From Vicinamibacteraceae bacterium (lineage in GTDB: Bacteria > Acidobacteriota > Vicinamibacteria > Vicinamibacterales > JAFNAJ01), in assembly GCA_023384595.1 (NCBI GenBank), contig JAHDVQ010000010.1, positions 1 to 54,185 on the forward strand: DNA of 54,185 nt, in the 5' to 3' direction. Shown here one piece after another: positions 3,629-46,970 of this stretch. The notes below the pieces were generated by a model. That model did not search any database, was not told where the DNA came from, and was given only the letters and a program-made list of their open reading frames with translations. Position 1 is the stretch's first letter. Each line of letters begins with the position of its first letter. Both the position numbers and the translations under genes were made by a program.

Positions 3629-3692
3629 GGGGCGGGCGGCCCCGCGCCGAGCGGGTGGGTCGCGCAGGCGCGCCGCAGACTCTGGAGGGGAC

Positions 3693-10759: not shown

Positions 10760-11242
10760 ATGTGCTGTCCACGACTCGACGCGCGACGCTCGGCGGCGGT
10801 TCTCTGGGCCCTGCTCATCGGCATCCCCGTACTGACCTTTGCCGAGGAGCCCAAATCGTCGCGGCCCCTCGTCTTCACGGCAGACGACCCGCGTCTCGAA
10901 TGGGGACCGTGCCCCGAGTTCCTGCCGGCTGAATGCCGGCTGACGGTGCTCCAGGGCAACCCGGCGGCCCAGAACGCCGACGTCTTCCTGAGACTCCCAC
11001 CTGGTTCGGCGATTCCCCATCACTGGCACACGTCGGCAGAACGTATGGTCCTCGTCTCCGGCGAACTGCACCTTACGTACGACGGACACGACAAGACGAT
11101 CCTCAGACCGGGTGCCTACGCGTACGGGCCCGCGAAGCTGCCACACCGCGGCTCGTGTGCAGCCGGCGACCCGTGCGTGCTGTTCATTGCGTTCGAGCAG
11201 CCGGTCGACGCGGTGCCGACGAAGGCCGCGCCGGGCCAGTAG
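10760..11242 (+). CDS. secreted cupin domain protein
   Basis: ATG at 10760 after GAGGAGG. Signal peptide MCCPRLDARRSAAVLWALLIGIPVLTFA. Cupin motifs IPHHWHTSAERMVLVSGEL and GPAKLPH. Confidence 0.75.
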   Translation: MCCPRLDARRSAAVLWALLIGIPVLTFAEEPKSSRPLVFTADDPRLEWGPCPEFLPAECRLTVLQGNPAAQNADVFLRLPPGSAIPHHWHTSAERMVLVSGELHLTYDGHDKTILRPGAYAYGPAKLPHRGSCAAGDPCVLFIAFEQPVDAVPTKAAPGQ

Positions 11243-11252
11243 ACGCACCGAC

Positions 11253-12737: not shown

Positions 12738-12769
12738 AGGCGACGGCGTCGCGAGGGATCGGTACGACG

Positions 12770-15571
12770 TCAGTGGCGACGCCCCCATCGGCGCAGCCAG
12801 CCCCTCACGCGACTCACCAAGCCAGCCGGCTGGCGCAGTGCGACGATCTCCGCTCGGATGGCTTGCGCGGTTGAGTCGAGCACTTCGGGATCCCGCTGCA
12901 TCAGCCAGAGCAGATCGCGCTCGAAGGTCGTTCGCGCCGCGGCGGCGTCGTTCATCTGGACCGCCAGGATGAACAGGTTCCAGGCGGACGCCAACGTCCG
13001 GGAATGCGTCTCGCCCAGTACCCGCCGGGTGGCGTCGAGCACCTGCTCCATGAGCGCGCGCGACGCGGCGAAGTCGCCTTGCGCGCGCAGCGTGCTCGCG
13101 AGGTTGTTCATCGCCCAGAGCGTGTCCGGGTGCGAGTCGCCCAGCCGTTGCCGGCAGCCTGCGACGACCCGCTCCTCGAGCGCCCGCGCTCCGGCGAGCT
13201 CTCCCTGGGCTTCGAGTGTCGTCGCGAGGTTGCCGAGTGCCCGCAGCGTGTCTGGATGCCCGTCGCCCCACATCGAGGTGTACGCTTCGACGACCTGCTC
13301 CAGCAGGGCGCGTGCGGCGGGCGTCTCCCCCTGGGCGTGAAGGGCGAGCCCAAGGTTCTGCGTGGCGATGAGCGACACGCGATCGCGCTCGCCGCGCGTC
13401 CGCACGCTGATCTCGCGCACTCGCTCCAGGAGGCGGCGCGCGCCGGCGACGTCGCCGATCGCCTGCAACGTCTCCGCGAGGTTGTTCCTCACGGTCAGCT
13501 CGACCTCGCGCCATTCGTCCGGCACCTGCCCGAGGTGGCCGACGACGCGTTCGAGCAGCGTCCGCGCGCCGGGCAGGTCGCCCGCGGCCCGCATGGTGAG
13601 CGCGAGGTTGTTCAGCGCGGTGAGCGTATGGGGATGCGTCTCGCCCAGTACGCGGCGGCTCGTCTCGACGAGGGAATCGAGCAGCCGGCGTGCGCCGGGC
13701 AGGTCGCCCATGTGGCGCCGCATCTCGGCGAGGTTGTTCATCGCCGTCAGCGTGTCCGGGTGCGTGCCGCCCTGAAGGCGCTGCCGCAGCTCGTACTGCT
13801 GCCGGCAGATCGCTTCGGCCGACGCGTACGCCCCCACGACGAAGTCGAACGTCGCCACCCAGTCGCGCAGTGCGAGACCAGAGAGGTCGTCGCTCGTCCT
13901 GGCGAGCTCACGGGCGTGGGCCACCAGCAGGTCGAGGTGCTGGTGCGAATCCTCTGCACGCCTCGGTAACGTCATCGTCAGGACCGCGACCGCTGCCGCC
14001 CGCAACGACTCGCGGCGCCGCGGTTCCGCGTCGTGGAACTGCACGGTGCGGGTCACCAGGGTGTGGACGGCCGCGACGCCAGGTCCGGCATCGGCCGGCT
14101 CGGTCAGCGACAGCAGATCGGCCTGGTGCAAGGCCCGCATCGCGCGCGACCGCGCGTCTCGGACAGGAAGCCCGTCTGCGGCCTCGAAGACCCGCTCGAC
14201 GAGCGCCGCGGGAATGGGCGCGACCGCGAGCCCGGCTGCGAGGCGCAGGAAGTCGCGGCCCTCTGGGCCGAGACGGGTCAGGCTCTGCAGCAGCGTCGCG
14301 GCCACGGCCGGTTCGTGACCGTTCGGCAGCACACCCGCGAGGTCCCGGGCGAGCTCGAGTGCGTCACGCGTCGGGTCGTTGAGCTCCGCCAGGACGTCGG
14401 CATACGACTGCAGCCGGAGCAGGGCCGCCGCGACATCCACCGCCAGCGCATGGCCACCCAGGCGCTCGACGATGGCCCGTGCGGCCAGCTCTTCGTCTTC
14501 GCCGATTGGTGCCCGCCGGCCCGGCGCGTGGGTCAGCAGCTCGTAGGCTGCATCCGGATCCAGCACACCGAGCGCCACGACCACCCCAAGGGCGCCGTAC
14601 TCGCGACTGCGCGTCGTGACGAGCGTTCTGCCGAGCGGATGCGGCGCCAGCCACCCGACCAGCGAGTCGTGCCCGAGCCCGGAGGGCACGTCGTCGACGA
14701 CCCAGAGGAAGGGCTGTCCCCGCTCGCCGAGTTCCCTCGCCAGGTGGCTCTCCACGTCGCCGAGCGGTCGTCCGTCGACGGGCAGACCGAGCGCCTCAGC
14801 CACTGCACGGAGTTGCCGGCCGCGCTCGGCCTCGCGCTCCTCCCGCCCCAGGCCAACCCGGGTCTCGTCGTTGCCGAACGCGCGCAGCCAGAAGACGCCG
14901 CCGGGATGCGCGGCCGCGAAGCGGACGGCGTACTCCTCGGCGAGCAGCGATTTGCCGACGCCACCCATGCCCTGGACGAGCGCGAGGGCGGATCCCGCGG
15001 CGCCCGTGATCACCGGCGCGTCGCGCGCGTGCAGCGCGGAGTGGAGCCGCCAGAGGTCGGCGAGGCGACCGACGAAGCGAGTCGATCCGGTGGACCGGCT
15101 GCCGTACCACTGAGGTTGCTCGAGGGGCTCGACGTCCCCGAGGGTGCCGGCAAGCGCTTTGACGTGAGCCTCGACATCCGCCGCAAGGTGGTCGAGGGCC
15201 GGCTGGTTGCCGGCGCCGGGGATGGCGACGAAGAGCGCATCGCGCAGCTCCACCGGCTGGATGTGCAACGCTTCCGGTTCCGGGTTGACGACGAGGATCC
15301 GCCGGCGGGGGTCGGCGTCGCGGGCCGCCGCGAGATACGCCGCGGCGAGTTCCCACTGGCAGGCGCGGGAGCTTGCGTACTCCGCGGCGTAGTACGCGAC
15401 GAGCACCTTCGATCGCGCCAGCCCCTCCGCGATCGAGCGGGTGATGCTGGCAAAGGTGGGGATGTCGCTCTCGTCCACCCAGACGTCGAGGCTTCGTGCC
15501 CGCAGGGCCGCCGCGATTGACGCCGCTTCCGGCGCGCGGGCGTGCGGGTAGCTGAGGAAGACGTCGTACAT
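12770..15571 (-). CDS. TIR - NB-ARC (STAND NTPase) - TPR protein, NLR/Avs-like
   Basis: TIR: MYDVFLSYPH... and SRACQWELAAA (Glu74, nt 15350-15352). Walker A GMGGVGKS (nt 14948-14971), Walker B FLWVVDDV, sensor TLVTTRS. About seven 42-aa TPR repeats (HPDTLxAMNNLAxTLRAxGDLxGAR). Confidence 0.92.
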   Translation of the reverse strand: MYDVFLSYPHARAPEAASIAAALRARSLDVWVDESDIPTFASITRSIAEGLARSKVLVAYYAAEYASSRACQWELAAAYLAAARDADPRRRILVVNPEPEALHIQPVELRDALFVAIPGAGNQPALDHLAADVEAHVKALAGTLGDVEPLEQPQWYGSRSTGSTRFVGRLADLWRLHSALHARDAPVITGAAGSALALVQGMGGVGKSLLAEEYAVRFAAAHPGGVFWLRAFGNDETRVGLGREEREAERGRQLRAVAEALGLPVDGRPLGDVESHLARELGERGQPFLWVVDDVPSGLGHDSLVGWLAPHPLGRTLVTTRSREYGALGVVVALGVLDPDAAYELLTHAPGRRAPIGEDEELAARAIVERLGGHALAVDVAAALLRLQSYADVLAELNDPTRDALELARDLAGVLPNGHEPAVAATLLQSLTRLGPEGRDFLRLAAGLAVAPIPAALVERVFEAADGLPVRDARSRAMRALHQADLLSLTEPADAGPGVAAVHTLVTRTVQFHDAEPRRRESLRAAAVAVLTMTLPRRAEDSHQHLDLLVAHARELARTSDDLSGLALRDWVATFDFVVGAYASAEAICRQQYELRQRLQGGTHPDTLTAMNNLAEMRRHMGDLPGARRLLDSLVETSRRVLGETHPHTLTALNNLALTMRAAGDLPGARTLLERVVGHLGQVPDEWREVELTVRNNLAETLQAIGDVAGARRLLERVREISVRTRGERDRVSLIATQNLGLALHAQGETPAARALLEQVVEAYTSMWGDGHPDTLRALGNLATTLEAQGELAGARALEERVVAGCRQRLGDSHPDTLWAMNNLASTLRAQGDFAASRALMEQVLDATRRVLGETHSRTLASAWNLFILAVQMNDAAAARTTFERDLLWLMQRDPEVLDSTAQAIRAEIVALRQPAGLVSRVRGWLRRWGRRH

Positions 15572-15805
15572 CGGCCCACCTGCCGACTGACACGTGGCTC
15601 GTCCCGGGCCAGATCGGTTCCCGACCAGCGTGGCGACCGTGGGTGTGCTTCCCAGTGTCGCACGACGAGGCGGCTCGCGCGGTGGTCAACGGCTCGTGCC
15701 TGGAGACGGCGGCAGAGGCCAGGCTGGCGCGCGGCGCCACCTTACCCGCGCGAGTCGGTGTATCGTGAAGGTCCGTCAGGCCCGTCCCCCCACCGGAGAG
15801 ACCCG

Positions 15806-17896
15806 ATGACCCGACGCTGCTTCTCGTTCATCATCGTCGCCCTGCTGCTTCTCGTCGCCGTCTCGGCCGCGGCCGAGACGCGTGTCATCGCGCCTGCCGA
15901 TCTCTGGGCCCTCAAGCGTCTCGGCAGCCCAAGGCTCTCACCCGACGCGGCGAAGGTGGTCTACACCGAACAGGAGTGGTCGGTCGAGCGAAACAGCAGC
16001 ACCACGAACCTGTGGCTGGCCGATGTCGCGACCGGCGCGCTGCGCCGCCTGACGCGGGCGCAGGCGAGCGACAGCTCGCCGGCGTGGAGCCCCGATGGCA
16101 CGCGCATCGCATTCGTGTCGCGGCGAGGCGGAGACGAGGCGGCGTCGCTCTACGTCATCGCGGTCGACGGCGGCGAGGCCGAGAAGATTCTCGAGCTGCC
16201 GTACGGCGTGTCGTCGCCGCAGTGGATGCCCGATGGCCGCCGTCTCGTCGTGGCGACGACGGTGATTCCAGAGCTCGCGGGGAAGATGACGACGGCCGAC
16301 CTCGAGGCGGTGAAGCGCGAGCAGAAGCGGCGGCGCGAGTCGAAGCTCACCGCGCGCGCCACCGAGCACCGCCAGTACCGCTTCTTCGACCGCTACCTCA
16401 CCGACAACCTCGCCAGCCGCCTCGTGCTCGTCGACGTCGCCGCGAAGACGTTCGTCGACCTCACGCCGGCGGTCGACCGATTGTTCGACACGAGCGGCGA
16501 GGTGAGCTACGCGCTCTCGCCCGACGGCGCGACCATCGCGCTCACCTTCAACTCGACGCCGCCGCCCTACCGCGACTTCCTGAACGCCGACATCTACCTC
16601 GTGCCCACCGATGGCTCGGGTGCGCTGCGCAACGTCACCGCCGAGAACCCGGGCGCCGACGCCGGACCCGTGTGGGCGCCCGACGGCCGCAGCGTCTACT
16701 TTCGCCGGCAGGAGACGCCCTACTACTCGGGCGAGTTCGCGAAGCTCTGGAGACACGATCTCGCCACCGGGAAGAACGTGCCAGTGACCGAGGCGCTCGA
16801 CTACGGCATTGGCGACGTCGCGGTCTCCGACGATGGGAAGACCCTGTGGATCACGGCGGAGGAGAAGGGCGTGGTACCCGTGTTCAAGGCGAACGCCGAC
16901 GGCAGCGGCTTCGCTGCGGTGCACCGGGCCGGCACGTCGACGAGCCTCGACGTGCGGGGCGGTGTCGTGGCCTTCCTCAACGACACCACGTCGCGTCCCA
17001 ACGAGATCTTCGTGCTCGACGCCGGGACCGGCGCCGTGCGCCAGCTGACGCGCGTGAACGAAGCGTTCATGGCGGGCCTGCGTCTCGGCGAGATGAAGGA
17101 GTACTGGTTCAAGGGCGCCGGCGGCGCCGACGTGCACGGCTGGCTCGTACTGCCGCCCGGGTTCGACCCGAACGCGCGGTATCCCCTGGTGCAGCTCCTG
17201 CACGGCGGCCCGCACACGATGAACCGCGACTCGTGGAGCTACCGCTGGAACACGCAGGTGTTCGCCGCGGCGGGCTGGGTCGTGACGTGGGTCAACCGGC
17301 ACGGGTCGACCGGCTTCAGCGAGGCGTTCTCGCGGAGCATCCTCAACGAGTGGGGCGTGAAGCCGTTCGACGACGTGATGAAGTCCACCGACTACCTGCT
17401 CGGGCAGTATCCGAACCTGGATGCCGACCGGCTCGCGGCGGCCGGTGCGAGCTACGGCGGCTACATGGCCACGTGGATCCTCGGACATACCGACCGGTTC
17501 AAGGCCATCGTGAACCACGCGGGGGTGAACAACAGCTACTCGCAGTACGCCACCGACATCCCGCACGGGTTCACGCAGGTGATGGGCGGGACGCCGTGGG
17601 AGGACGTCGAGGGGCTGCAGCGGAACAACCCCATGTTCTACGCGGCGAACTTCAAGACGCCGATGCTGGTGATTCACGGCGAGAAGGACTACCGGGTCCC
17701 GTATGGCAACGGGCTCGAGCTGTATGGCGTGCTGCAGGGGATGGGCGTGCCGTCGCGGCTGGTGGTGTTTCCCGACGAGAACCACTGGGTGCTGACGCCG
17801 CAGAACGCGATCTACTGGCACTGGGAGATGCAGAGCTGGCTGGCGCGATACATCGGCGGGACGCCGACGCTCGAGCGGCCGGTGTTCGGAGGGTAG
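15806..17896 (+). CDS. S9 family (prolyl oligopeptidase/acylaminoacyl-peptidase type) secreted serine peptidase
   Basis: ATG at 15806. Signal peptide MTRRCFSFIIVALLLLVAVSAAA. Beta-propeller region (SPAWSPDGTRIAF). Nucleophile GASYGGYM, then HGEKDYRVP and ENHW. Confidence 0.9.
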   Translation: MTRRCFSFIIVALLLLVAVSAAAETRVIAPADLWALKRLGSPRLSPDAAKVVYTEQEWSVERNSSTTNLWLADVATGALRRLTRAQASDSSPAWSPDGTRIAFVSRRGGDEAASLYVIAVDGGEAEKILELPYGVSSPQWMPDGRRLVVATTVIPELAGKMTTADLEAVKREQKRRRESKLTARATEHRQYRFFDRYLTDNLASRLVLVDVAAKTFVDLTPAVDRLFDTSGEVSYALSPDGATIALTFNSTPPPYRDFLNADIYLVPTDGSGALRNVTAENPGADAGPVWAPDGRSVYFRRQETPYYSGEFAKLWRHDLATGKNVPVTEALDYGIGDVAVSDDGKTLWITAEEKGVVPVFKANADGSGFAAVHRAGTSTSLDVRGGVVAFLNDTTSRPNEIFVLDAGTGAVRQLTRVNEAFMAGLRLGEMKEYWFKGAGGADVHGWLVLPPGFDPNARYPLVQLLHGGPHTMNRDSWSYRWNTQVFAAAGWVVTWVNRHGSTGFSEAFSRSILNEWGVKPFDDVMKSTDYLLGQYPNLDADRLAAAGASYGGYMATWILGHTDRFKAIVNHAGVNNSYSQYATDIPHGFTQVMGGTPWEDVEGLQRNNPMFYAANFKTPMLVIHGEKDYRVPYGNGLELYGVLQGMGVPSRLVVFPDENHWVLTPQNAIYWHWEMQSWLARYIGGTPTLERPVFGG

Positions 17897-22168: not shown

Positions 22169-24358
22169 ATGCTGCTCTCGGCGATCGTGCTCGACACGTC
22201 CATGACGGCGTCTGCGGCGCTCGTGCGTCTCGCGCGCCACGGGTACTGGACCGACCCGCGCCGCCAGGAGACGCTGGCCGCAGTGCTCGACTACGCGGCT
22301 CGCCTTGCGCTCGCACCCGACGAGGCCGAGCGACGGCTCGCGCGCAACCCCTACGGGGTCGGTGCCGCGTTGCGGCGCCAGTGGGGCATGCAGGTGCTCT
22401 GGTACGCACGCTACCTCGAGGAGGTCCTGCATCGCTGCTCGGACGCGCCCCCCGGGCAGTCGCTGCTCGACGTCCTGGACCTCCACGAGCCCGACAGCCG
22501 GCCGCCCATTCAACTCGCCGACGACGGGGCGACGCCGAACGCCGAGGGGGTGGTGTTCGTGGGCGACGTCCCCGTGGGTGTGAGCGTGATGATGCCGATG
22601 GCCGCACCGCCGCCGCCCGCGCCGGCGCCACCCTTTGGCGTGCCCTTCGGGGTCGACCCGGGCTCGGGGCGCGGCCCGAGCCGCGGTGGTGGGGCCCCGC
22701 CTGCGGTGGCGCCGAAGCCGCCGGTGTCGGTGACCGCGTGGCCACGCCTCGACGCGCCGAACTACGTGCCGGCGCGCACGCCGTTCACGGTCGTCGTCGG
22801 CCTGGCGCGGGAACGGCAGGCAGGCGTCGGCGGCGGCCAGGTGTCGATCGCCGTGCCGGCCGGTCTTTCGAGTGTCGACGTGAGCGTCGAGCTGATCGCC
22901 GACGGCATCGATGCGCCCGAAGGATGGGCGCGCACCCTGCGCGTCGACGTCGCCGACCCCACGGCGACGTCGGTGAGCTTCGTGCTCGTCGGCCGCGACC
23001 CGGCTGGCCCGGAGTGGCTGCACCTGACGACGCTCGAGGTGAGGTACGTCCTCGACGGTACGGTCTGCGGCACGGCGTCGCGAGCGCTGGTCATCGGCGA
23101 TGCCTCCACTGTCGATCCGCCGCCCCGGCTCGGTTTCGGCGACGCATGGCTCGACCAGCCGCCGACGGCCACACCAGTCGTGCTCCGCGCCGAGACGCTG
23201 CCCGCCGACCTCACCATCGAGATCGCGAAGCCAGACGGCAATCCGGCAAACGGGCGCTTCGAGTGCCGTCTCTTCTCGCCGCACCCCCTGCCGTCGGGTG
23301 CCGGTCCCTTCCCGATCGACCTCGGCGACGATGCTCGGACGTTCGCGCGTTCGATCGTCAGCCAGATCCGCGACTACGCCAACGACCCGCTGGTCGACAA
23401 CCTCCTCGTCTCGCTCGGCATGCTCATCGCCGAGAAGCTGCCCCTCGACGTGCTCGACGCGGTGCGCGCGGTGGCGGCGGTGGCAGCCCCGCGTGCTCCG
23501 GCCGTGCTCGTGGTGTCGGCCGATCCCTACGTGCCGTGGGAACTCGCTCACGTCGACCCGCCGCTCGACCCGGCTCGGCCTCCCTTCCTCGGCGCACAGG
23601 TGACGCTCGGCCGATGGCTGCGCGACCCGCGCGGGACGGACATGAGGCCGGCTTCGCCCGGCATGGCCGCCCGGCCGCCCGCGCAGCCACCTTCGACGGT
23701 GGCCGTGAAGCACATGGCCGTCATGGCGGGGCTGTACCGCGCCGCGTCGGGCCTGCGCCCGCTGCCGGCCGCTGAGCAGGAGGCCGCAGCGCTCGCGCAG
23801 GCGTACGATGCGGTGAAGCTCGCCGCGAGCACCCTCGACGTGAAGCGGTTGCTCGACGCGCAGCTCACGCACGGTTTCGAGCAGATCGGCGGCGTCGAGG
23901 CGATTCACTTCGCGGGCCATGGCGATGTCGATCCCAACGTCGTCGACGGCTCGCTGCTCATGCTCTCGGAAGGCAAGCCGCTGCCCTCGATCCTGTTCCG
24001 CAGCGCGAAGTACGGCGGCGACAGGCAGCCGCTCTTCTTCCTCAACGCGTGCATGATAGGCGTCGGGGGCGAACTGCTCGGCGACATGGGTGGCTTTCCC
24101 GGCAATTGCCTGCGGGGCGGCTTCGGCGCCCTGCTCGGCGCGTTGTGGGAGGTCGACGACACGGTGGCGCGACAGTTCGCACTCGATTTCTGGAGGCGGG
24201 CGCTTCCGGTCGACGGCAGCCCGGCCGAGCCGGTGGGCGACATCCTGCGCGACCTGCGGGCCAAGTACTCGGACGCCGCAGGCCAGACCCCGGCCCACAC
24301 CTGGCTGGCCTACGTCTACTACGGTCACCCGAGGCTGACACTGCAGCGCGCCGTCTGA
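22169..24358 (+). CDS. CHAT (caspase-fold) domain protein with uncharacterised N-terminal two-thirds
   Basis: C-terminal CHAT motifs are AIHFAGHG (His584, nt 23918-23920), LFFLNACMIG (Cys628, nt 24050-24052) and GALWEVDD. The N-terminus has a helical domain of about 100 aa, a Pro-rich linker (APPPPAPAPPFGVPFG) and beta-rich segments. No signal peptide or TM helix. Confidence 0.88.
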   Translation: MLLSAIVLDTSMTASAALVRLARHGYWTDPRRQETLAAVLDYAARLALAPDEAERRLARNPYGVGAALRRQWGMQVLWYARYLEEVLHRCSDAPPGQSLLDVLDLHEPDSRPPIQLADDGATPNAEGVVFVGDVPVGVSVMMPMAAPPPPAPAPPFGVPFGVDPGSGRGPSRGGGAPPAVAPKPPVSVTAWPRLDAPNYVPARTPFTVVVGLARERQAGVGGGQVSIAVPAGLSSVDVSVELIADGIDAPEGWARTLRVDVADPTATSVSFVLVGRDPAGPEWLHLTTLEVRYVLDGTVCGTASRALVIGDASTVDPPPRLGFGDAWLDQPPTATPVVLRAETLPADLTIEIAKPDGNPANGRFECRLFSPHPLPSGAGPFPIDLGDDARTFARSIVSQIRDYANDPLVDNLLVSLGMLIAEKLPLDVLDAVRAVAAVAAPRAPAVLVVSADPYVPWELAHVDPPLDPARPPFLGAQVTLGRWLRDPRGTDMRPASPGMAARPPAQPPSTVAVKHMAVMAGLYRAASGLRPLPAAEQEAAALAQAYDAVKLAASTLDVKRLLDAQLTHGFEQIGGVEAIHFAGHGDVDPNVVDGSLLMLSEGKPLPSILFRSAKYGGDRQPLFFLNACMIGVGGELLGDMGGFPGNCLRGGFGALLGALWEVDDTVARQFALDFWRRALPVDGSPAEPVGDILRDLRAKYSDAAGQTPAHTWLAYVYYGHPRLTLQRAV

Positions 24359-24380
24359 GACGGACGGAAGGAGCACGTAC

Positions 24381-25910
24381 ATGCCACAGCTCACGGGCGC
24401 GGCACAGCCGGTGGCCCTCGGAGGCGGCTACTTCATCCGGGCGCCAGGCGTGCGCGGTCAGGCGGAGCTGAGGCGGCCGCGCACGGCTGGCGAACGCTCG
24501 CGATCGCGCACGGTCGACGACGGGACGACGGCACTCGACGCCGCGTTCTCGGCTGCGGGCGTCACCGAGGTGCGGCAGATCGATCTTTCGGTGCAGCCGC
24601 AGCCATCCGCCGCGGCGACCACGACGCTGCGCAGCGTCGACGGCCGCCAGGATGCGCTGGAACTCGTGGTGCCCGATCTCGGGCCCGAGACGGGACAGCT
24701 CGTGCTCGCCTGCGACGAGATGGGCGTGTTGACGTGGCATCTGCCGATTGACGAAGCCGGTGCGGTCGAAACGCCCACGACCCGGGGCAGTGGTGGCACG
24801 AAGCGGTTTCGCATCCCGGCGACCCGTACAGCGCCGCCTCCGCCAGCCGACTCGCGCACGCGGAGCCTGCTCGGCGTCGTCGGGCGCAAGCTGCTGAAGG
24901 TGCTGGTCTACCCGATCACCGATCCGGTGATCGGGGCCGTGAGCGAGTTCTTCGCCGAGCGATGGGAGCAGCGCCATCGTCCGTACGGCCTGCGCGACTT
25001 CAGCCCGGGCAGCTTCCGCTTGCCGGCCGGCGCGCCGCTCGGCGATGCCGACTGGCCACGGCTTGCGACAGGGCCGGCGCTGCTCTTCGTGCACGGGACG
25101 TTCAGCACGGCGCACGGCGCGTTCAGCCAGATCCCGGATGCCGTCTTCGCCGAGCTGCACGCGCGCTACGGCGGGCGGGTGTTCGCCTTCGACCACTTCA
25201 CGCTCTCGCACGATCCGGCTCGCAACCTGCAATGGCTCGCCGACCACCTGCCGGCGCTGGATCTCGACGTCGACATCGTGTGTCACAGCCGGGGCGGCCT
25301 GGTGGCGAGGGCGCTGGCTGAGCGGCCTGCGTCGCTCGGTGTCGGTGCCTCGAGGGTCCGGGTGGGGCGCATCGTCTTCGTCGGCGTGCCGAACGCGGGC
25401 ACGCTGCTCGCTCATCCCGCGCACATGGTCGCGATGATCGACCGCCTGACGACGGCGCTCAACCTCTTCCCCAGCGGAGCCGTGGCCGAGACGCTCGAGG
25501 CCATCCTGACGGCGATCAAGGTGATCGGGCACGGGGTTCTCAACGGCCTCGACGGCCTGGCGGCGATGCAGCCGGGCGGGGCCTTCCTGGCGAAGCTGAA
25601 TACGGGGAACCCGCCGGGCGACGGGTACCACGCCATCGGCGCCGACTACGAGCCCGTCGAGGAAGGGCTGAAGGCCCTCGTGGCAGGCACGGTGGCCGAC
25701 GCCGTGCTCGATCGGGTGTTCGAGGACACCCCGAACGACCTCGTCGTGCCAGAGCCGGGCGTCTTCGAGGTCGATGGCAGCGGGGCGTTTCCCATTCCCG
25801 AGGCGCGCCGCCTGCGGGTGCCGCCGGAGGAGGGCGTGATCCACACGACGCTGTTCGGCCATCCGGCCGCCGCGGCCCGCCTGCTCGACTGGCTCGGCGC
25901 CAGGTCGTGA
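24381..25910 (+). CDS. lipase-like alpha/beta-hydrolase with ~190-aa N-terminal extension
   Basis: GGAAGGAG RBS 7 nt before the ATG, 22 nt after the CHAT gene's stop. Motifs LLFVHGTFS, nucleophile elbow VCHSRGGLV (Ser303, nt 25287-25289), NDLVVPEPG and VIHTTLFGHP. Confidence 0.8.
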   Translation: MPQLTGAAQPVALGGGYFIRAPGVRGQAELRRPRTAGERSRSRTVDDGTTALDAAFSAAGVTEVRQIDLSVQPQPSAAATTTLRSVDGRQDALELVVPDLGPETGQLVLACDEMGVLTWHLPIDEAGAVETPTTRGSGGTKRFRIPATRTAPPPPADSRTRSLLGVVGRKLLKVLVYPITDPVIGAVSEFFAERWEQRHRPYGLRDFSPGSFRLPAGAPLGDADWPRLATGPALLFVHGTFSTAHGAFSQIPDAVFAELHARYGGRVFAFDHFTLSHDPARNLQWLADHLPALDLDVDIVCHSRGGLVARALAERPASLGVGASRVRVGRIVFVGVPNAGTLLAHPAHMVAMIDRLTTALNLFPSGAVAETLEAILTAIKVIGHGVLNGLDGLAAMQPGGAFLAKLNTGNPPGDGYHAIGADYEPVEEGLKALVAGTVADAVLDRVFEDTPNDLVVPEPGVFEVDGSGAFPIPEARRLRVPPEEGVIHTTLFGHPAAAARLLDWLGARS

Positions 25911-25923
25911 GTCGACGGCTTCC

Positions 25924-28900
25924 TCACGACCCGACCTCACCGGTGGCCTGACGCCGCGTGTTGCGAATTGCGCTGACGAAGAAGGGTGCCCAGTCGTAGC
26001 GGGTATGGCGGCGGCCCGGGTTGGCGAGGTGAGCCCGGAGCGCCCACTGCAGGGCGACGTCTGGCTCGGCCCCCGCGGCGAAGGCCCGGTGGAGGTCGAC
26101 CAGGATGAGACGCGCGCTCGCGTCGTCGACCGGCCATAGCGCGCCGAGCACCGAGCCCGCGCCTGCCTCGAAGAACGCCGCTTGGAGACCGAGGAGGTCG
26201 TCGCCGGGCAGCTGTGCCAGCCCCCGTCCTCCAACCGCCCGCTGCCCCGAGTGGCAGGCCGCCAGCACCACGAGCTCTGCCCGCAGATCGATGGCGCTCA
26301 CCTGCCAGCCGTCGAGCACGCCATCGGCCAGCGCGATGTCGCAGGCCAGCGGATCGTCGGCCGACTCTCCCGCGAGCACGCTGCGACCGTGCGTCGCCAG
26401 GTGCAGGCACCGGCACGCGGTGAAGGAGAGATCGAGGAATCCTGCGCGCGTGACGTTGGCGACGAACTGCCCTCGCTCGCCGTGCACCGCAGCCACGTCC
26501 ACGGCTTCCGCCTGTGAGTGTTCGAGCGGTGCCCAGCCCGCCTGGGCGAAGCGGTCGATGCCCACGGCGACGACCTGGCCGTCGCGGCAACCCGACCATG
26601 GCAAGAGCAGGCTCGACAGGTTCGGCGCGTACCGTACCGCGAACCGCGTTCCCAGCCACGCCCCCTCCGGCGCGTCGCCGCCGGTCCAGGGCATCGCGTG
26701 AAACGGGAAGAGGTGCAGCGCTCGATGCGGGCTGAGCACGAGCCGGGTGCGTCCGGCGATGAAGGCTCGAACCGGCTCCGGTACCAGCCGCGGCGCGAGG
26801 GCGTCGACGATCCGATCGATTGCCGGCACGATCGCCTCCAGCGCGGGGCGCGGAGCGTTGAACGCCTGCACGCACGTCAACCAGCGATCGAGCTGCCTCC
26901 GGTCGTCCGGCGTCAGGATGATCGTGTGCTTTTCGAACCGGCCGCGAGCGACGGCCAGCACGACCAGCGCGTCGTCGCCGAGCCAGAACCACGAGAGCGC
27001 CGCCTCGTCGTCGGCGAGAGCGGCCTGGACGCCGGCCACGGTGCACGGCCGCTCGTCGGCCGACTCGCCGGGCGCGGAGACGAGCGCCCGAGCCGTCGCG
27101 AGCAGGCGCCGGCGTTCGATGAGGGCGTCGGCCGCGGTCGAATGCGCGGGCACGGCGGCCAGGGCACGGTTCGCCGAGACGAAGTCGCGCTCGACGGCGT
27201 CCGCCCACGGGTCGGCCCCGCCGTCTCGCCGGCGGTCCCGCCGGCGCTCGAGTCGTCGTCCGGCGAAGTGCGCCTTCAGCCGTTCGGTCGTGTCGACGAG
27301 CGCGTCATCGCGTCCGAGCTTCAGGTTCGCGACGACCGCGTGCTCGTACAGCTCGGCCCGCGTGGCCAGGAAGGCCGCTTGCTGGTACGGCGCGCTGACG
27401 CGCCGCCGCTGCGCCTCGAGCTCGGCGATGGCGGGCTCGCAGAGCGCGATCACAGCCTCTGAATCGCGCTGCGCCGCGTGCGCGCGGACGTCGTAACGGG
27501 TCGCGTCCAGATAGGCTTCGCGCTCGGCCGACGACGCCAGGCACTCGAGCGTGAGCGGGTGGATCGGCGAGAGGGCCGCGCGCGCGGCTGCCGTCGCGGC
27601 CGCGACCTCAGCGAATCGGCCGAGCGCGAGCCGCACGTACGCCAGCTCCAGCCAGGCGCGGGCGAGGTGCAGGCGCGATGCCAGGTGCTCGGCTTCAGAG
27701 ACCAGACGACGGGCCTCGTCGAGCTGCGCCTCGGCCGGCGCCACGTTGCAGGCGAGTCGCAGCGCATACAGGGCGGCGTCGAGGACCGCGCCGCGTTCGA
27801 GGAACCCCGCCGTGCCGGGAGAGCTCGACGATCCCGTCCCGGAATCGATGGGATCGCCTGCTCCGGGCTCGCCGAGCCACCACGCGAGTTCGGCGCTCAC
27901 CTCGCGCTGCAGCGCGTCGGCCTCGTCGACGAGTTGCGCGACGAACGGACCGAGGGCCGCCAGGCACGCTTCCGCGCGGGCCACACCCTCCCTGTCCGTT
28001 CGCACGTCGTCGCCGAGGCGTTCGCTGATGCGGGCGCCGCAGACGACCGCCCAGTGGCCCGCCACGTCGGCGAGACGACCGAGGAGCTCTGGGCCGGGAA
28101 CGCTGGCTGACGCGACGACGATCCAGGCCCCGGTCGCACGGTCGAACGCGGGTTCAGGGTCGACGTACCCGGCCTCTTCGAGCACGCTGGCGAGTTCGCG
28201 TGCCAGTCGCGCGAACTCGAAGCGGTCTCCCGCGCGGTGCGACTCGACCGCGAGCCCGCCAAGCGACGCCGCCCGCGCCATCGGGTCGTGCGCGACGAGC
28301 AGCGCACGGACCAGCGACGCCGCGGCGGCGTCGAAGTCGGCTTTGACGCCGCGCTCGAGGGCGGCCACGCGCTCGCGCAGTCGGTCCGCGTCGGCCACGT
28401 GGCCCGCGCGTTCGAAGCACGCGATCCCGTCTGCGAGCGCGCGGCGCGCCAGGTCGAGGTCTCCGATCTCGACTGCGCCCCGCGCACGGACGTCTTGGGC
28501 CATGCCGAGCCACCACGCGTGGTCGGCCGGTACCGGCCGGTCCCAGGTGTCCGCCCGGCGAGCGAAGGTCTCGATGGCGGTCTCGAGCGCCCGCAGGCGC
28601 GTCGTGTCGGCGAGGCCGACGTCGCAGTCGCGCATCGCCTGCGTCAGCGGCGGCAGCTGGGCCAGAAGGTCGGCCTGCCGTGGGTCGGCCGCGCGGGGCG
28701 AGACCGCGCCCGGAAATGCGACGGCGATGTGCTCGACGATCTGCGTGAGCGCCGCGTGGCGGCTGACGAAGCATTGCTCGATCTCCGTGGCGGTGCCGTC
28801 GCGACAGCGTGCCTCGAGATCCGCGAGCGGCTCGACGGGCGCGTGGCCCTCCGGCCACGCCTCGCGCTGCAGCCGCAAGGCCACAAACGGCCTCGCGTCG

Positions 28901-29085
28901 TGCACGTGACGTGCGGCGGTTTCGTCACCGACCGCCTCCGTGACGCGTCGCACGCGCTCGGCCGGTGGCAGGTCGAGCCACGACCACAGCGCGTGGCACG
29001 CGTCGACCAGCCCCCTGCCAGGCAAGGTGGAGCCGACGGCCTGCCGAAACAGCTGGCGGCCGTCCTCGCTGTCGATCGTCGTCAT
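25924..29085 (-). CDS. TPR/helical-repeat - CHAT domain protein
   Basis: About 700 aa of helical, TPR-like N-terminal region. CHAT motifs are CLHLATHG (His899, nt 26389-26391), LVVLAACHSG (Cys944, nt 26254-26256) and GALWPVDD. Convergent with the hydrolase gene across a 13-nt gap. Confidence 0.88.
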   Translation of the reverse strand: MTTIDSEDGRQLFRQAVGSTLPGRGLVDACHALWSWLDLPPAERVRRVTEAVGDETAARHVHDARPFVALRLQREAWPEGHAPVEPLADLEARCRDGTATEIEQCFVSRHAALTQIVEHIAVAFPGAVSPRAADPRQADLLAQLPPLTQAMRDCDVGLADTTRLRALETAIETFARRADTWDRPVPADHAWWLGMAQDVRARGAVEIGDLDLARRALADGIACFERAGHVADADRLRERVAALERGVKADFDAAAASLVRALLVAHDPMARAASLGGLAVESHRAGDRFEFARLARELASVLEEAGYVDPEPAFDRATGAWIVVASASVPGPELLGRLADVAGHWAVVCGARISERLGDDVRTDREGVARAEACLAALGPFVAQLVDEADALQREVSAELAWWLGEPGAGDPIDSGTGSSSSPGTAGFLERGAVLDAALYALRLACNVAPAEAQLDEARRLVSEAEHLASRLHLARAWLELAYVRLALGRFAEVAAATAAARAALSPIHPLTLECLASSAEREAYLDATRYDVRAHAAQRDSEAVIALCEPAIAELEAQRRRVSAPYQQAAFLATRAELYEHAVVANLKLGRDDALVDTTERLKAHFAGRRLERRRDRRRDGGADPWADAVERDFVSANRALAAVPAHSTAADALIERRRLLATARALVSAPGESADERPCTVAGVQAALADDEAALSWFWLGDDALVVLAVARGRFEKHTIILTPDDRRQLDRWLTCVQAFNAPRPALEAIVPAIDRIVDALAPRLVPEPVRAFIAGRTRLVLSPHRALHLFPFHAMPWTGGDAPEGAWLGTRFAVRYAPNLSSLLLPWSGCRDGQVVAVGIDRFAQAGWAPLEHSQAEAVDVAAVHGERGQFVANVTRAGFLDLSFTACRCLHLATHGRSVLAGESADDPLACDIALADGVLDGWQVSAIDLRAELVVLAACHSGQRAVGGRGLAQLPGDDLLGLQAAFFEAGAGSVLGALWPVDDASARLILVDLHRAFAAGAEPDVALQWALRAHLANPGRRHTRYDWAPFFVSAIRNTRRQATGEVGS

Positions 29086-29340: not shown

Positions 29341-30708
29341 TCACCGGTCGTTCGTGCGATCGTCGGGAGCAGGTGTCGAGGCCTGCGAGATCTCATGCGC
29401 GCGAGGCGCCATCGTGCGCGGACGCGCCGTTCCAGTGATCGGTCCGGCCCGCGGGCTGAGCGACGTGAAGTACTCGACGTGCCTGCGGCGCGACACGGCC
29501 TCGCTGTACCGCTCTTCGGCGAGCTGTCGGCCCCGCTGGGCGATGCGGCCATAGTACGCGGCGTCGTCCCAGAGAGCGCACACCGCATCGAACCACGATT
29601 CGATCTCCTGTTCGGTCGGGAGACGCCGCGACTCTGGCGTCATCCACGTCGGAACGGGCCGCACGCATCCGCCCCCGCCGACGTTCGCGTCGCCGCCGAC
29701 GACATCGGGAAGCGAGCCGCGGTCGCTGACGATCGCGGGAATGGCGTTGATCATCGCCTCGGCAGCCACCCGCCCGAAGGGCTCCTCCCAGACCGACGGC
29801 ACGAGCAGGATGCGGGTCAGCGCAAAGTAGTCGGCTGGCCTCGGCACGGCCGGCGCGGCCATGATCTGCGGATATCTGGAGAAGTCGATCCCGGGAATGG
29901 CGTTGAGGGCGCCGCCGCTCTCGCCCGACTGAATCACGAGGATGGGAATGTCGGGACGGCGCGATCCGAGCATGTCGGCGAGACGCGCAAACAGCATGAG
30001 GCCCTTGTGCAGGGCCGGGTGCACAAACGTGACGAACGCCCGCGTGTCGGTGGCCGCCACGACGGTCGACCAGTCGATCGGCGGCTCGATTGGCGTGCTG
30101 TCGAGCCCGATCTCCCGACGGTACAGGTCGGTCAAGAACTGGCTGCACGTGAAGGCGTGATCCACGTGCGCGAAGTAGCGGGCGTCGTAGTACCCGAATC
30201 CGCGAACGGCGTACGCCGTGGTGATCCCACGCGAGCGCGCCGCCGCCAGCGCGGCGCCAATCATCGGGTGCGCGTTGCAGGCAATCAGCTGATCCGGTGC
30301 GAACTCGTCGAGCAGGGTCGACAGCAGCGCGTCGTATTGCCGCGCTTCCAGCCGATCGGGCCGTGCCTCGTCGTTGTGGCGGGTGAGCAGCAGGGTCACC
30401 GGGGCCCCGCCGACGCGGTAGCGGACGACAGGGTGCGCTCTGGCCGTCGGTGCTCGGTGTCCCCCGTCCGCCCGGCCCGCTCCTGGACGCCGCGGCATCT
30501 CGACGCCGAGCGCCTCGAGGTGCTGCTCGATCGTGAAACCCACGCGGCCCTCGAACCGCGCCGTCGTCAGGACCCGGCACTCGTGCCCGGCGTCCACGAG
30601 CCACTCCACGATCGTGCGGAGGCTCTGGGTGACCCCCGCCGTGGGGTCGCTGATGCAGTGATTGTTCGCGAGCAGGAAGCGCACGCGCGGAGCGTACAGA
30701 GCGTGCAT
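29341..30708 (-). CDS. glycosyltransferase family 4-like protein
   Basis: Internal ATG at 30708 (MHALYAPRVRFLLANN...). GT-B motifs LLVPSVWEEPFGRVAAEAMINAIPAIVSDRGSLPDVV. The C-terminal tail is low-complexity, so the true stop or frame near 29341 is less certain. Confidence 0.78.
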   Translation of the reverse strand: MHALYAPRVRFLLANNHCISDPTAGVTQSLRTIVEWLVDAGHECRVLTTARFEGRVGFTIEQHLEALGVEMPRRPGAGRADGGHRAPTARAHPVVRYRVGGAPVTLLLTRHNDEARPDRLEARQYDALLSTLLDEFAPDQLIACNAHPMIGAALAAARSRGITTAYAVRGFGYYDARYFAHVDHAFTCSQFLTDLYRREIGLDSTPIEPPIDWSTVVAATDTRAFVTFVHPALHKGLMLFARLADMLGSRRPDIPILVIQSGESGGALNAIPGIDFSRYPQIMAAPAVPRPADYFALTRILLVPSVWEEPFGRVAAEAMINAIPAIVSDRGSLPDVVGGDANVGGGGCVRPVPTWMTPESRRLPTEQEIESWFDAVCALWDDAAYYGRIAQRGRQLAEERYSEAVSRRRHVEYFTSLSPRAGPITGTARPRTMAPRAHEISQASTPAPDDRTNDR

Positions 30709-30731
30709 CGACCCGTCAACCGTGAGAGGGC

Positions 30732-31673
30732 ATGAGCGAGAGGCCACGAGCCAGGGAGCGTGAGATGTCTCGAGAAGAACGTTCGGCAGAGGTCGAGGAG
30801 AGATCTGAGCAGTTGCTGCGGGGGCCACTGCAGCACGTGCGGGCTGCGGCGCTCGCCGCGGTGCTCGTACCGCTGGCCTCGGTGGCGGCCGCACCGGCCA
30901 TGGCCCAGACCTGCGCGTCGGGTGGGGCGACGGTGGGTGACTTCGTCTGGCACGATGCCAACGGCAACGGCGTACAGGACGCGGGAGAACCCGGGATCTC
31001 CAGCGCCGTGGTGTCGGCAGTGTCGGCCGACGGCACGCACGTCACTTACACCGACGAGATGGGGTACTACCTCTTCTACGGTCTGTGTCCCGGCGAGTAC
31101 CGCATCGAGGTGCAGATCCCGCCGGGCATGCAGCCGTCTCCCGTGTCGCAGGGTGGCGATCCAGCCCTCGACAGCAACGGGGCTCCTGACGGCGCTGGCC
31201 ACAGCGTCGCGCGGGTTCAGGCCGAGGCATGGTCCTACGACGACTCGATCGACTTCGGCTTCGTCGAGTCGGCCCCGCCTGGTGGCGAGGTCGGAACCGG
31301 CACGCCCGGCTACTGGATGAACCATCCCGAGGCGTGGCCGGTCGAGGAAATCACCGTGGGCGGGAAGACCTACTCGAAGAGCGAGGCACTCGCCTGGCTC
31401 TGGAAGAAGGGTGCCGACCGTACCCTCACCATGTTCAGCTCGCTCGTGCCCGCGATGCTGAACGTCCTTGCCGGCACCGATGCGAGCTGCGTCCAGGCCA
31501 CCATCGATGCGGCCAACGCCTGGATGTCGGCGCCGCCGGTCGGCTACGGGCCTGTCGGCAGCAGGGTGCACCCGGCGAGCTATGCGTGGAAGGTGGGCGA
31601 GCCGCTCCATCGCACGCTCGACAACTACAACAACGGCATGTTGTGCGCGCCGAGCCGCGACGCGCTCGAATAG
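30732..31673 (+). CDS. secreted SdrD B-like (Cna-B-type) domain protein
   Basis: GDFVWHDANGNGVQDAGEPGI...TYTDEMGYYLFYGLCPGEY is the SdrD B-repeat signature. The likely true start is GTG 30837, giving the signal peptide MRAAALAAVLVPLASVAAAPAMA. Confidence 0.75.
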   Translation: MSERPRAREREMSREERSAEVEERSEQLLRGPLQHVRAAALAAVLVPLASVAAAPAMAQTCASGGATVGDFVWHDANGNGVQDAGEPGISSAVVSAVSADGTHVTYTDEMGYYLFYGLCPGEYRIEVQIPPGMQPSPVSQGGDPALDSNGAPDGAGHSVARVQAEAWSYDDSIDFGFVESAPPGGEVGTGTPGYWMNHPEAWPVEEITVGGKTYSKSEALAWLWKKGADRTLTMFSSLVPAMLNVLAGTDASCVQATIDAANAWMSAPPVGYGPVGSRVHPASYAWKVGEPLHRTLDNYNNGMLCAPSRDALE

Positions 31674-38921: not shown

Positions 38922-39050
38922 CGTCGGTCGATCTTACGCTGTCGCGCCCGTCGCACGAACTCGCGTCGGGCGGCGTGCGCAGGATGCCCTCGGCGCCCCC
39001 CTCGGTCCGGACCCGTCGCAGACGGCGTTTCAGGGTGTAGTGTAGGAACC

Positions 39051-45976: not shown

Positions 45977-45980
45977 CGCG

Positions 45981-46751: not shown

Positions 46752-46970
46752 GGCACAAGGTCCCGGTGGAGGCGGCAGCCGTGTCCCGCAGCCGGCGGGG
46801 GCCCGGACGAGGGTATCACCAGTCCATCTGCCACCCTTGGCGGCGGCGCGACCTTCGCGGTATTGTTCTCCACGGGGCTCCGGCCGCGCACGCGGCCGGG
46901 GCCACTTGACGGCCACTGCCCCTGTGGCCGGCCCGCACCCTTCGCCCGCTTTCATTCCCGAGGTTTTTCC

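Follow-up and report, generated by a model that had tools for sequence, protein, structure and literature searches.

Can a protease resembling caspases and a lipase-like hydrolase, encoded by two genes only 22 nucleotides (nt) apart, form a switch in which the first enzyme licenses the second? This question is raised by positions 22169 to 25910 of a 54,185-nt stretch of DNA, the window of this analysis, from a Vicinamibacteraceae bacterium of the Acidobacteriota (assembly GCA_023384595.1, contig JAHDVQ010000010.1, positions 1 to 54,185, forward strand). A reading of the letters without database searches (the sequence-only reading) had proposed that a CHAT protease removes an inhibitory pro-domain from an alpha/beta-hydrolase and so releases a toxin. 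We find that the feature is real and nonrandom and that this reading of the pair's logic is sound. Our favored explanation, to which we give a probability of about 0.6, is that the pair belongs to the caspase/alpha/beta-hydrolase class as a self-contained, horizontally mobile conflict module of two genes, protease and effector, in which the hydrolase would be a zymogen gated by the CHAT protease, by analogy with a module described by Evans et al. 2025 (bioRxiv, PMC12642450). What sets it apart is the distinct hydrolase architecture and the TCAD7-CHAT protease; earlier publications already contain both the pairing and the logic of the gating.

A protease gene and a hydrolase gene that travel together

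The two open reading frames (ORFs), the gap between them, and the ribosome-binding site in that gap are, on rereading the sequence, as first described, and the quoted motifs stand at the quoted residues: IHFAGHG (His584), FFLNACMIG (Cys628), and GALWEVDD in the protease and LLFVHGTFS, CHSRGG (Ser303), NDLVVP, and HTTLFGHP in the hydrolase. The layout is as follows, GC3 being the GC content at third codon positions.

22169..24358, + strand: CHAT protease gene, 729 amino acids (aa), TCAD7/beta-sandwich/CHAT (ORF, GC3 0.89, Pfam)
24366..24373, + strand: Shine-Dalgarno-like GGAAGGAG, within the 22-nt spacer, 7 nt before the hydrolase ATG at 24381
24381..25910, + strand: N-terminal domain plus alpha/beta-hydrolase gene, 509 aa, predicted protease-gated effector (ORF, GC3 0.88, Pfam)

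The window has a GC content of ~70%, and many of the ORFs listed for it are spurious; the GC3 values of these two reflect a strong coding bias. Public gene calls give the same 729-aa and 509-aa products in a metagenome-assembled genome (MAG) of the Vicinamibacteraceae (Acidobacteriota; assembly GCA_048499155.1), and the hydrolase is 100% identical to KJ061_02950, listed as a hypothetical protein in a Vicinamibacteraceae MAG. The 22-nt spacer with its Shine-Dalgarno-like GGAAGGAG implies a putative protease-hydrolase operon. A terminator scan of the gap found no terminator-like site between the genes, and promoter and terminator scans of the pair were otherwise uninformative.

Is the arrangement peculiar to this genome? 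When single genomes representing 185,579 species were scanned by pattern, at least 587 stretches were recovered that encode hydrolase relatives. The locus analyses described here cover the best 80 of these, which come from the Burkholderiales, Xanthomonadales, and other Proteobacteria, from the Gemmatimonadota, Acidobacteriota, and Actinomycetota, and from the Rhodothermales/Bacteroidota, the Desulfuromonadales, and further groups. Of the 80, 75 could be evaluated for having enough upstream DNA, and upstream partners were detected by tblastn and an iterated hidden Markov model of the CHAT domain. In 68 of these 75 loci, fewer than 100 nt separate the end of an upstream CHAT gene from the hydrolase. 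Such adjacency is far beyond chance. Six of the other seven loci are fusions or reversed arrangements, and the fusion exceptions strengthen the case for coupling; one locus (L056) has no caspase-fold gene. In this last locus, a DNA/RNA nonspecific (NucA-type) endonuclease gene lies immediately upstream of the hydrolase (positions 3548-4399).

The fusions join the N-terminal domain (N-domain) and hydrolase core to a protease in either order. Polypeptides of the form N-domain/hydrolase/CHAT (L075, L022, P0277, and P0292) and N-domain/hydrolase/Peptidase_C14 (P0321) carry the protease last, and those of the form Peptidase_C14/DUF4384/N-domain/hydrolase (L068, L072, P0283, and P0358) carry it first. 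In the L075 fusion, the C-terminal portion shows homology to aa 191-719 of the window protease (E = 7e-21). The fusion with C14 at its N terminus is found in a Rhodothermales group (L068 and L072 were scanned; L071, L076, and L079 have ORFs of equal size), where a caspase-nSTAND1-WD40 protein or a CHAT protein is encoded downstream. At L068 (Rubrivirga), the gene directly after the caspase-hydrolase fusion (11424-16013) encodes a Peptidase_C14/nSTAND1/WD40 protein of ~1500 aa, a STAND sensor with its own caspase domain, and at L076 (Rhodothermales) a gene for a 1383-aa product occupies the matching position (11450-15598).

Pairwise distances among the CHAT proteins track those among the hydrolases with r = 0.83-0.85, which is as strong as when one half of the hydrolase is compared with the other. 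Because adjacency holds in 68 of 75 loci, Rosetta-stone fusions occur in both orders, and divergence covaries, we conclude that the two genes are functionally coupled, and the coupled unit that the sequence-only reading had proposed thus stands.

Does anything else travel with the pair? The 86 immediate neighbors at the 80 loci carry 140 Pfam families, so that flanks are unrelated from locus to locus, and the families that recur among them are CHAT (10), Peptidase_C14 (5), WD40 (5), nSTAND1 (4), and AAA_16 (4). All-versus-all clustering of the flank ORFs of these loci found no recurrent family besides CHAT. The nearest relatives of the window pair (75% and 67% identity) sit amid genes unrelated to those of the window. 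The best matches of this acidobacterial pair lie across phylum boundaries, in Betaproteobacteria, Gemmatimonadota, and Desulfobacterales, with 56-67% identity between acidobacterial and proteobacterial relatives. Since the flanks are unrelated between genomes, the pair is a horizontally mobile two-gene cassette.

A minority of loci have neighbors of conflict type, namely a second CHAT or C14 gene, caspase-nSTAND1-WD40, CHAT-AAA_16, or SIR2-AAA_21. A second CHAT domain lies within 10 kb in 27 of the 80 loci, several of them immediately downstream, and two more loci have a caspase-STAND gene. No match to the pair was found in phages. Plasmids gave only two matches, both annotated as CHAT-domain proteins (Ruegeria and Paracoccus), and no copy of the full pair; of the two, the Ruegeria match was examined and is a distant DUF7379-CHAT fusion. 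The Ruegeria locus (L086, Ruegeria pomeroyi DSS-3 megaplasmid NC_006569.1, 129335-136139) encodes the 966-aa fusion SPO_RS20450, followed by a 986-aa SIR2_2/AAA_21/AAA_15 ATPase and a 297-aa hypothetical protein, and it adjoins an IS5 transposase; it is a candidate three-gene defense locus in a cultured model organism.

Two predicted enzymes and the linker within the hydrolase

If the genes are coupled, are both products likely to be working enzymes? The protease has the following parts, as located by Pfam, by homologue alignment, and by an AlphaFold2 (AF2) model with its per-residue confidence, the predicted local distance difference test (pLDDT).

22172..22582, + strand: TCAD7 domain, aa 2-138, candidate sensor or docking domain (Pfam PF19973, E = 4.8e-21)
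22616..22723, + strand: Pro/Ala/Gly-rich disordered linker, ~aa 150-185 (pLDDT <50 for aa 152-180)
22724..23323, + strand: all-beta middle region (immunoglobulin [Ig]/macroglobulin [MG]/cohesin-like), aa 186-385 (AF2 strands 186-384, high pLDDT)
23501..24355, + strand: CHAT protease region, aa 445-729 (Pfam CHAT match, aa 526-688, E = 4e-13)
23918..23920, + strand: codon of catalytic His584 in IHFAGHG (invariant in 75 homologues)
24050..24052, + strand: codon of catalytic Cys628 in FFLNACMIG (invariant in 75 homologues)

In the AF2 model of the protease (pLDDT 86.3; predicted template-modeling score 0.87), a compact alpha/beta TCAD7 domain (aa 1-140) is followed by the linker, the all-beta region, three helices, and the CHAT region. 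The catalytic dyad given by the sequence-only reading holds, in that both residues are invariant and His584 falls in the canonical CHAT/caspase HG motif. The best Foldseek matches in the Protein Data Bank (PDB) are the Craspase TPR-CHAT protein Csx29 (7y84, E = 2e-11), DdvA, which is an anti-sigma factor of CHAT type, and separases, with secondary matches of the beta region to MG domains of complement C3b, cohesin, and Fab (Ig-like) domains. A sequence search of the CHAT profile against the PDB returned nothing significant; the structural matches come from the fold search only. TCAD7 is present in nearly all of the 120 listed homologues and is kept in 8 of 10 distant CHAT proteins that are paired with the hydrolase; the L075 fusion lacks it and retains the beta region. 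The linker is poorly conserved in the homologue alignment, and the beta region diverges fastest (mean pairwise distance of 0.66 versus 0.51-0.58 for the other parts). TCAD7 and this fast-evolving region are likely candidates for the sensing or regulatory part of the protease.

The hydrolase divides into an N-domain, a low-confidence stretch, and a core with its catalytic residues.

24381..24818, + strand: beta-rich N-terminal domain, aa 1-146, DUF7362-like (AF2 strands, pLDDT ~55-92)
24996..25907, + strand: lipase-like alpha/beta-hydrolase core, aa 206-509 (Pfam DUF7379, aa 234-407, E = 2.4e-57)
25287..25289, + strand: codon of nucleophile Ser303 in CHSRGG (75/75 homologues)
25737..25739, + strand: codon of Asp453 in NDLVVP, predicted triad acid (75/75)
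25842..25844, + strand: codon of His488 in IHTT, predicted triad histidine (75/75)

The DUF7379 match, at 194.4 bits, is above the Pfam gathering score of 33 bits, and weaker matches are to Abhydrolase_6 and generic alpha/beta-hydrolase families. The oxyanion motif His238-Gly239 and the three triad residues are present in 75 of 75 hydrolases (the homologues coming from 74 other genomes), and Ser303 as nucleophile, part of the sequence-only reading, is borne out by this conservation and by the lipase-like fold. The AF2 model consists of the N-domain (aa 1-146), a low-confidence stretch (aa 152-186), and a well-modeled core (~aa 200-509). Its top Foldseek matches in the PDB are lipases from Burkholderia, Streptomyces, and Bacillus (8xy5, 5h6g, and the mature and pro-forms of BlEst2, 6wpy/6wpx), with the phospholipase PlaB (6zth) lower in the list (E ~5e-6 to 7e-5; target-relative template-modeling scores of 0.25-0.54); these matches of the whole model are dominated by the core, not the N-domain. 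By similarity of fold, the most likely substrate would be a lipid ester. Because the catalytic residues are conserved and intact, both proteins are predicted to be active enzymes. Both are also predicted to be cytoplasmic: as the sequence-only reading had it, neither contains a convincing transmembrane helix or signal peptide by hydropathy windows and AF2 models. The top 19-residue hydropathy windows fall in AF2 strands and helices, mostly of high confidence, and one window (aa 128-146) extends into the start of the low-confidence linker.

What, then, is the N-terminal part of the hydrolase? The sequence-only reading had called it ~190 aa of no recognized family. It has no above-threshold hit, as that description implies; aa 31-166 do give a subthreshold match to DUF7362 (20.0 bits versus a cutoff of 27.6 bits), so the region is better described as DUF-like than as an orphan. 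Direct scans of two fusions also fall below this cutoff (L075, 23.7 bits; P0292, 22.6 bits). In precomputed Pfam matches, P0011, P0021, P0024, and other homologues carry DUF7362 (PF24062), and several full-length homologues bear DUF7362 and DUF7379 together. When the N-terminal 205 aa were compared by phmmer with 1.84 billion representative proteins, 369 hits were returned, which by length and position belong to the standard ~500-aa form or its fragments and to the N-domain/hydrolase/CHAT, N-domain/hydrolase/C14, and C14/DUF4384/N-domain/hydrolase fusions. Because these hits all seem to be the hydrolase family or its fusions, we take the N-domain to be specific to this hydrolase, and the same 369 hits rule out a promiscuous adaptor or pro-domain of other effectors. 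Many N-domain residues are invariant across homologues. The inhibitory pro-domain that had been proposed is therefore not a loose propeptide; it is a conserved, structured, beta-rich domain unique to this hydrolase.

Between the N-domain and the core lie the features that would matter most for gating.

24783..24788, + strand: candidate protease site 1, Arg135-Gly136 (conserved Arg; loop aa 133-137, pLDDT <50)
24861..24866, + strand: candidate protease site 2, Arg161-Ser162 (invariant Arg; within aa 152-186, pLDDT <50)
24864..24995, + strand: conserved segment, aa 162-205, xLxGxxG[RK]KLLKVLV[YF]PxxDPxxG...WExxxRPYxxR (homologue alignment)

Arg135 is found in 70 of the 75 homologues and one column off in 3 more, with Gly, Ser, or Ala as the next residue. 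Arg161 is found in all 75, followed by Gly in 42, Ser in 28, and Ala in 4, and a hypervariable Pro/Ala stretch precedes it. The two motifs are 26 residues apart. Both are preserved in all fusion architectures, and the linker between N-domain and core is present in every one. Judged from the alignment, conserved Arg-[G/S/A] motifs in exposed loops amid hypervariable sequence are a putative signature of protease sites. In Lysobacter capsici AZ78, a caspase (LcCaspase) cuts a neighboring alpha/beta-hydrolase (LcHydrolase) at Arg73 and Arg117, both R|G sites (Evans et al. 2025, PMC12642450), and by analogy it is plausible that Arg135 and Arg161 are cleavage sites for CHAT. In all architectures, with the protease fused at one end or the other, a double cut would part the N-domain from the core, and the computed fragments would be 14.1, 2.8, and 36.8 kDa.

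The segment that begins at the second candidate site is the best-conserved stretch of the N-terminal half of the hydrolase among the 75 homologues, with K173, L175, P178, D181, W195, E196, R200, and R205 near invariant. Within it, the AF2 model has a block of low confidence (aa 161-190, pLDDT 32-50). The segment may be an interface for the protease or another partner, an element that refolds after cleavage, or a membrane-binding helix.

Weighing the explanations

In the explanation that we favor, gene 1 would encode a cytoplasmic CHAT cysteine protease, with TCAD7 and the beta-sandwich as its likely sensing or regulatory part, and gene 2 a latent lipase-like serine hydrolase made of an N-terminal beta-domain, a flexible linker, and a catalytic core. 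We posit that a signal, from stress or from an invader, switches on the CHAT protease, which would then cut the hydrolase in the exposed loops that lie between N-domain and core, after Arg135 and/or Arg161. Cleavage at both sites would excise a piece of ~2.8 kDa and leave fragments of 14.1 and 36.8 kDa; the cut would relieve autoinhibition or let the conserved 162-205 segment refold. The active hydrolase would then attack an ester, most likely a lipid and otherwise a peptide or other ester, and the cell would be killed or arrested. From the intact catalytic residues of both enzymes, their obligate coupling in genomes, and the Arg-[G/S/A] motifs with their conservation, all of which are directly seen, we infer the cleavage, its sites, the toxicity, the substrate, and an antiphage role. 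The idea that a protease licenses a latent hydrolase toxin, as the sequence-only reading put it, has a direct precedent (PMC12642450), and the conserved Arg-Gly/Ser motifs in loops fit it. The idea that the pro-domain is "removed" needs amending, in that the N-terminal fragment of the sole tested precedent is needed for toxicity, not discarded.

We also considered a more specific version, in which the pair is a self-sufficient immune module distinct from the Lysobacter type: TCAD7 and the beta-sandwich would sense the invader directly, cuts at R135 and R161 would detach a dedicated inhibitory beta-domain, in contrast to the Lysobacter enzyme with its cuts inside the fold, and the invariant, amphipathic 162-205 segment (GRKLLKVLVYP...) would be exposed and dock the lipase on the membrane, where phospholipids would be destroyed. 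So detailed a chain we regard as doubtful. If true, a membrane-docking lipase module would be the enzymatic counterpart of gasdermin-type execution.

Several points weigh against the favored explanation. The AF2 model of the hydrolase is of moderate confidence only (pLDDT 73.6), and the conserved Arg-Gly motifs could be structural or partner binding. LcHydrolase has ~297 aa and is cut within its fold, whereas the hydrolase here has 509 aa and its candidate sites are upstream of the fold; the precedent may be no more than an analogy. No experimental study of the 509-aa hydrolase family was found in the literature, and no trigger or sensor was recognized for the pair. The window is not a clear defense island, the adjacent genes being for a CNNM/CorC transporter, a cytochrome c, and an S9 peptidase. 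Finally, PADLOC finds no match in the pair. The sequence-only reading had predicted this blank over 22169-25910 as a sign of novelty; the blank is there, and it reflects the database, not novelty.

Could the pair instead serve as the output or an accessory of some larger NTPase system (vWA-MoxR-VMAP, STAND, or an AAA sensor) encoded elsewhere, to which TCAD7 docks the protease, so that the two genes would not suffice by themselves? The name of TCAD7, "ternary complex associated domain," points this way, as does a Joint Genome Institute annotation of one homologue as "associated with vWA-MoxR-VMAP ternary system," and the caspase/hydrolase pairing has been placed in VMAP and GAP1-N1 systems (Kaur et al. 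2020, eLife, PMC7159879). Genes for caspase-nSTAND1-WD40, CHAT-AAA_16, and SIR2-AAA_21 proteins adjoin some loci, and a TIR-NB-ARC-TPR STAND protein is encoded 6.6 kb upstream in the window. However, no VMAP, MoxR, or vWA gene was found in the window (~39 genes, of which 31 plus the two focal genes were Pfam scanned), and none of these is among the recurrent families of the 86 neighbors of the 80 loci; membership in a vWA-MoxR-VMAP ternary system was rejected on these grounds. Moreover, only CHAT recurs in the clustered flanks, the closest relatives lie in unrelated contexts, and NTPase neighbors occur in only ~10% of loci. We therefore think it unlikely, while granting it some weight, that the pair serves a larger NTPase system.

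Must the hydrolase be the substrate at all? It might instead be a coenzyme or regulator, processing a small-molecule or lipid signal that controls CHAT, or a second, peptidase-like executioner beside a caspase of broad action, as in caspase defense without an effector. Both active sites are intact, single-polypeptide fusions fit obligate cooperation equally well, and the conserved, low-confidence 162-205 segment would suit an interaction interface; Evans et al. further report a similarity of their hydrolase to oligopeptidases and caspase defense without an effector (PMC12642450). Yet the sole tested caspase/hydrolase pair works through cleavage of the hydrolase (PMC12642450), the conserved Arg-[G/S/A] motifs lie in exposed loops with hypervariable flanks, and a linker parts N-domain from core in every architecture. 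On balance, a hydrolase that is partner rather than substrate seems to us quite improbable.

A third explanation brings in the gene on the other side of the hydrolase.

25924..29085, - strand: convergent gene, 1053-aa product, CHAT domain at the C terminus (Pfam E = 4e-41) and a 750-aa N-terminal part without a Pfam or PADLOC family

This second CHAT gene could supply a sensor-bearing initiator that activates the TCAD7-CHAT protease in a cascade, or a parallel executioner. Its end lies 14 nt from the stop codon of the hydrolase, second CHAT domains within 10 kb are enriched among the related loci (27 of 80, with two further caspase-STAND loci), and caspase domains tend to co-occur within one system (Kaur et al. 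2020, PMC7159879). However, it lies on the opposite strand, it is absent beside the closest relatives of the pair, with weak matches in 3 of the 80 loci, and second CHATs elsewhere vary in position, strand, and architecture. A protease cascade is thus very improbable. Upstream of the second CHAT gene, and codirectional with it, is a GT4 glycosyltransferase gene (29341-30894, - strand), the product of which has a weak, subthreshold match to the "GT4-conflict" family PF20706 (E = 1e-3); the two genes were rejected as core parts, since neither is conserved alongside the pair.

A role in housekeeping or development, be it regulated esterase/lipase maturation for lipid remodeling or HetF-like developmental proteolysis, fits the mostly metabolic and envelope genes of the window and the lack of a PADLOC match and of copies of the whole pair among the phage and plasmid searches, but it is barely credible in view of the patchy cross-phylum spread at 56-67% identity with context-independent insertion, the fast-diverging N-terminal protease regions, the STAND, SIR2, and caspase genes that recur nearby, and the toxicity of the cleaved hydrolase of a related module (PMC12642450).

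The surroundings of the pair, mostly metabolic or envelope genes, hold several other items. The STAND protein mentioned above (12770-15571, - strand; 933 aa, TIR/NB-ARC/TPR, NLR-like) has only weak TIR-domain matches in PADLOC. A dynamin-family GTPase of 876 aa (38148-40778, + strand) shows PADLOC similarity to LeoA/LeoBC (E ~1e-19), which may be generic. At 3008-6506 (+ strand), a sigma factor of the extracytoplasmic function type (Sigma70_ECF) precedes a 937-aa Ser/Thr kinase-TPR protein, for which the PADLOC matches PD-T4-6, mad6, and MkoA are generic kinase-domain matches. PADLOC run on nine neighbors gave only such generic kinase, dynamin, and TIR matches, and an NCBIfam scan of the pair gave nothing. 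Two coding-looking ORFs of 581 and 467 aa (10992-12737, + strand; 2-1402, - strand) have no Pfam or PADLOC family. An ABC-2 permease is fused to a CAAX (Rce1-like) protease at 43859-46039 (- strand), and an aldehyde dehydrogenase with a 380-aa N-terminal extension is encoded at 45909-48497 (+ strand); because its predicted start overlaps the permease-CAAX gene by ~130 nt, that start is probably misset.

The pair among known systems

In prokaryotic immunity, death effectors gated by a protease are coming to be seen as a dominant logic, with clear parallels in animal caspase signaling. The pair adds to this picture no new category of system, and a specialist would not be surprised by it. What it offers is a widespread family (at least 587 stretches among 185,579 species-representative genomes, in many phyla) with the tightest possible linkage of protease to effector, including fusions to two different caspase-fold families, and a compact two-gene system for working out the substrate and trigger of caspase-associated alpha/beta-hydrolases.

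The sequence-only reading knew of no described defense system with this composition. That claim does not hold: the pairing is in Kaur et al. 2020 (PMC7159879) and the gating is in Evans et al. 2025 (PMC12642450). In the NTP-dependent conflict systems that Kaur et al. describe, the caspase-superfamily domain always has an alpha/beta-hydrolase gene as a neighbor. Their pairing occurs in vWA-MoxR-VMAP and GAP1-N1 systems, the latter with a related hydrolase; the peptidases can also be stand-alone genes, and no mechanism is proposed for the hydrolase (PMC7159879). The supplement to that study mentions neither TCAD nor the hydrolase. The window pair shares with these systems a caspase-superfamily peptidase with an intact His/Cys dyad (by Pfam CHAT match, conservation, and fold), a neighboring hydrolase gene with an intact Ser-Asp-His triad, a pairing conserved across genomes, and a ternary-complex-associated domain, TCAD7, which is named after these systems. 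It differs from them in that they include VMAP, MoxR, and vWA, whereas the pair here behaves as an autonomous cassette.

Bacterial gasdermin operons share the logic in which a neighboring caspase-fold protease frees an autoinhibited, membrane-damaging effector by cleavage. There the effector is a pore former held by a C-terminal inhibitory peptide, whereas here it would be a Ser-Asp-His hydrolase with an inhibitory element in its N-terminal part or linker; Pfam scans found no gasdermin family among the window genes or the locus neighbors. Type III-E Craspase provides the best structural match to the protease (7y84), and in it, too, a CHAT protease is held inactive until a sensor signal and then cuts one dedicated substrate. 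In contrast, its N-terminal region is made of TPRs and its substrate is a sigma-factor regulator (Csx30), where the window protease has TCAD7 and a beta-sandwich and the hydrolase is the proposed substrate. Pfam scans and a repeat scan of the window found no Cas genes or CRISPR array. The Pfam families DUF7362 and DUF7379 (NCBI, "esterase/lipase family protein") are families without an assigned function, the former matched by the window hydrolase below the cutoff, and neither of them nor TCAD7 is named in any paper that we found.

The nearest counterpart is the LcCaspase/LcHydrolase module, which likewise has a caspase-fold Cys protease encoded beside a lipase-like alpha/beta-hydrolase. Evans et al. 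found that N- and C-terminal fragments with the exact cleavage junctions kill Escherichia coli, that the hydrolase is similar by HHpred to oligopeptidases and lipases, that some caspases defend without any effector, and that the module is widespread and joined to diverse sensors, including WD40 and STAND NTPase (PMC12642450); some relatives of the pair here likewise have caspase-nSTAND1-WD40 neighbors. In LcHydrolase, two R|G cuts excise a small middle piece, and the two conserved Arg-[G/S/A] motifs in loops of the window hydrolase are placed so that they could do the same. The differences are as instructive. The protease here is a 729-aa TCAD7/beta-sandwich/CHAT protein with Cys628, whereas LcCaspase is a caspase with Cys129, and the window hydrolase has an extra beta-domain of ~150 aa relative to LcHydrolase, the two being compared by description, not by sequence. 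The lengths of 509 and ~297 aa argue for at least a distinct subfamily. By this comparison, the zymogen layout probably differs as well, with the regulatory cuts falling in a linker upstream of the fold and not inside it. If confirmed, the extra N-domain and the linker-located candidate sites would amount to a second way to build a hydrolase zymogen in this class.

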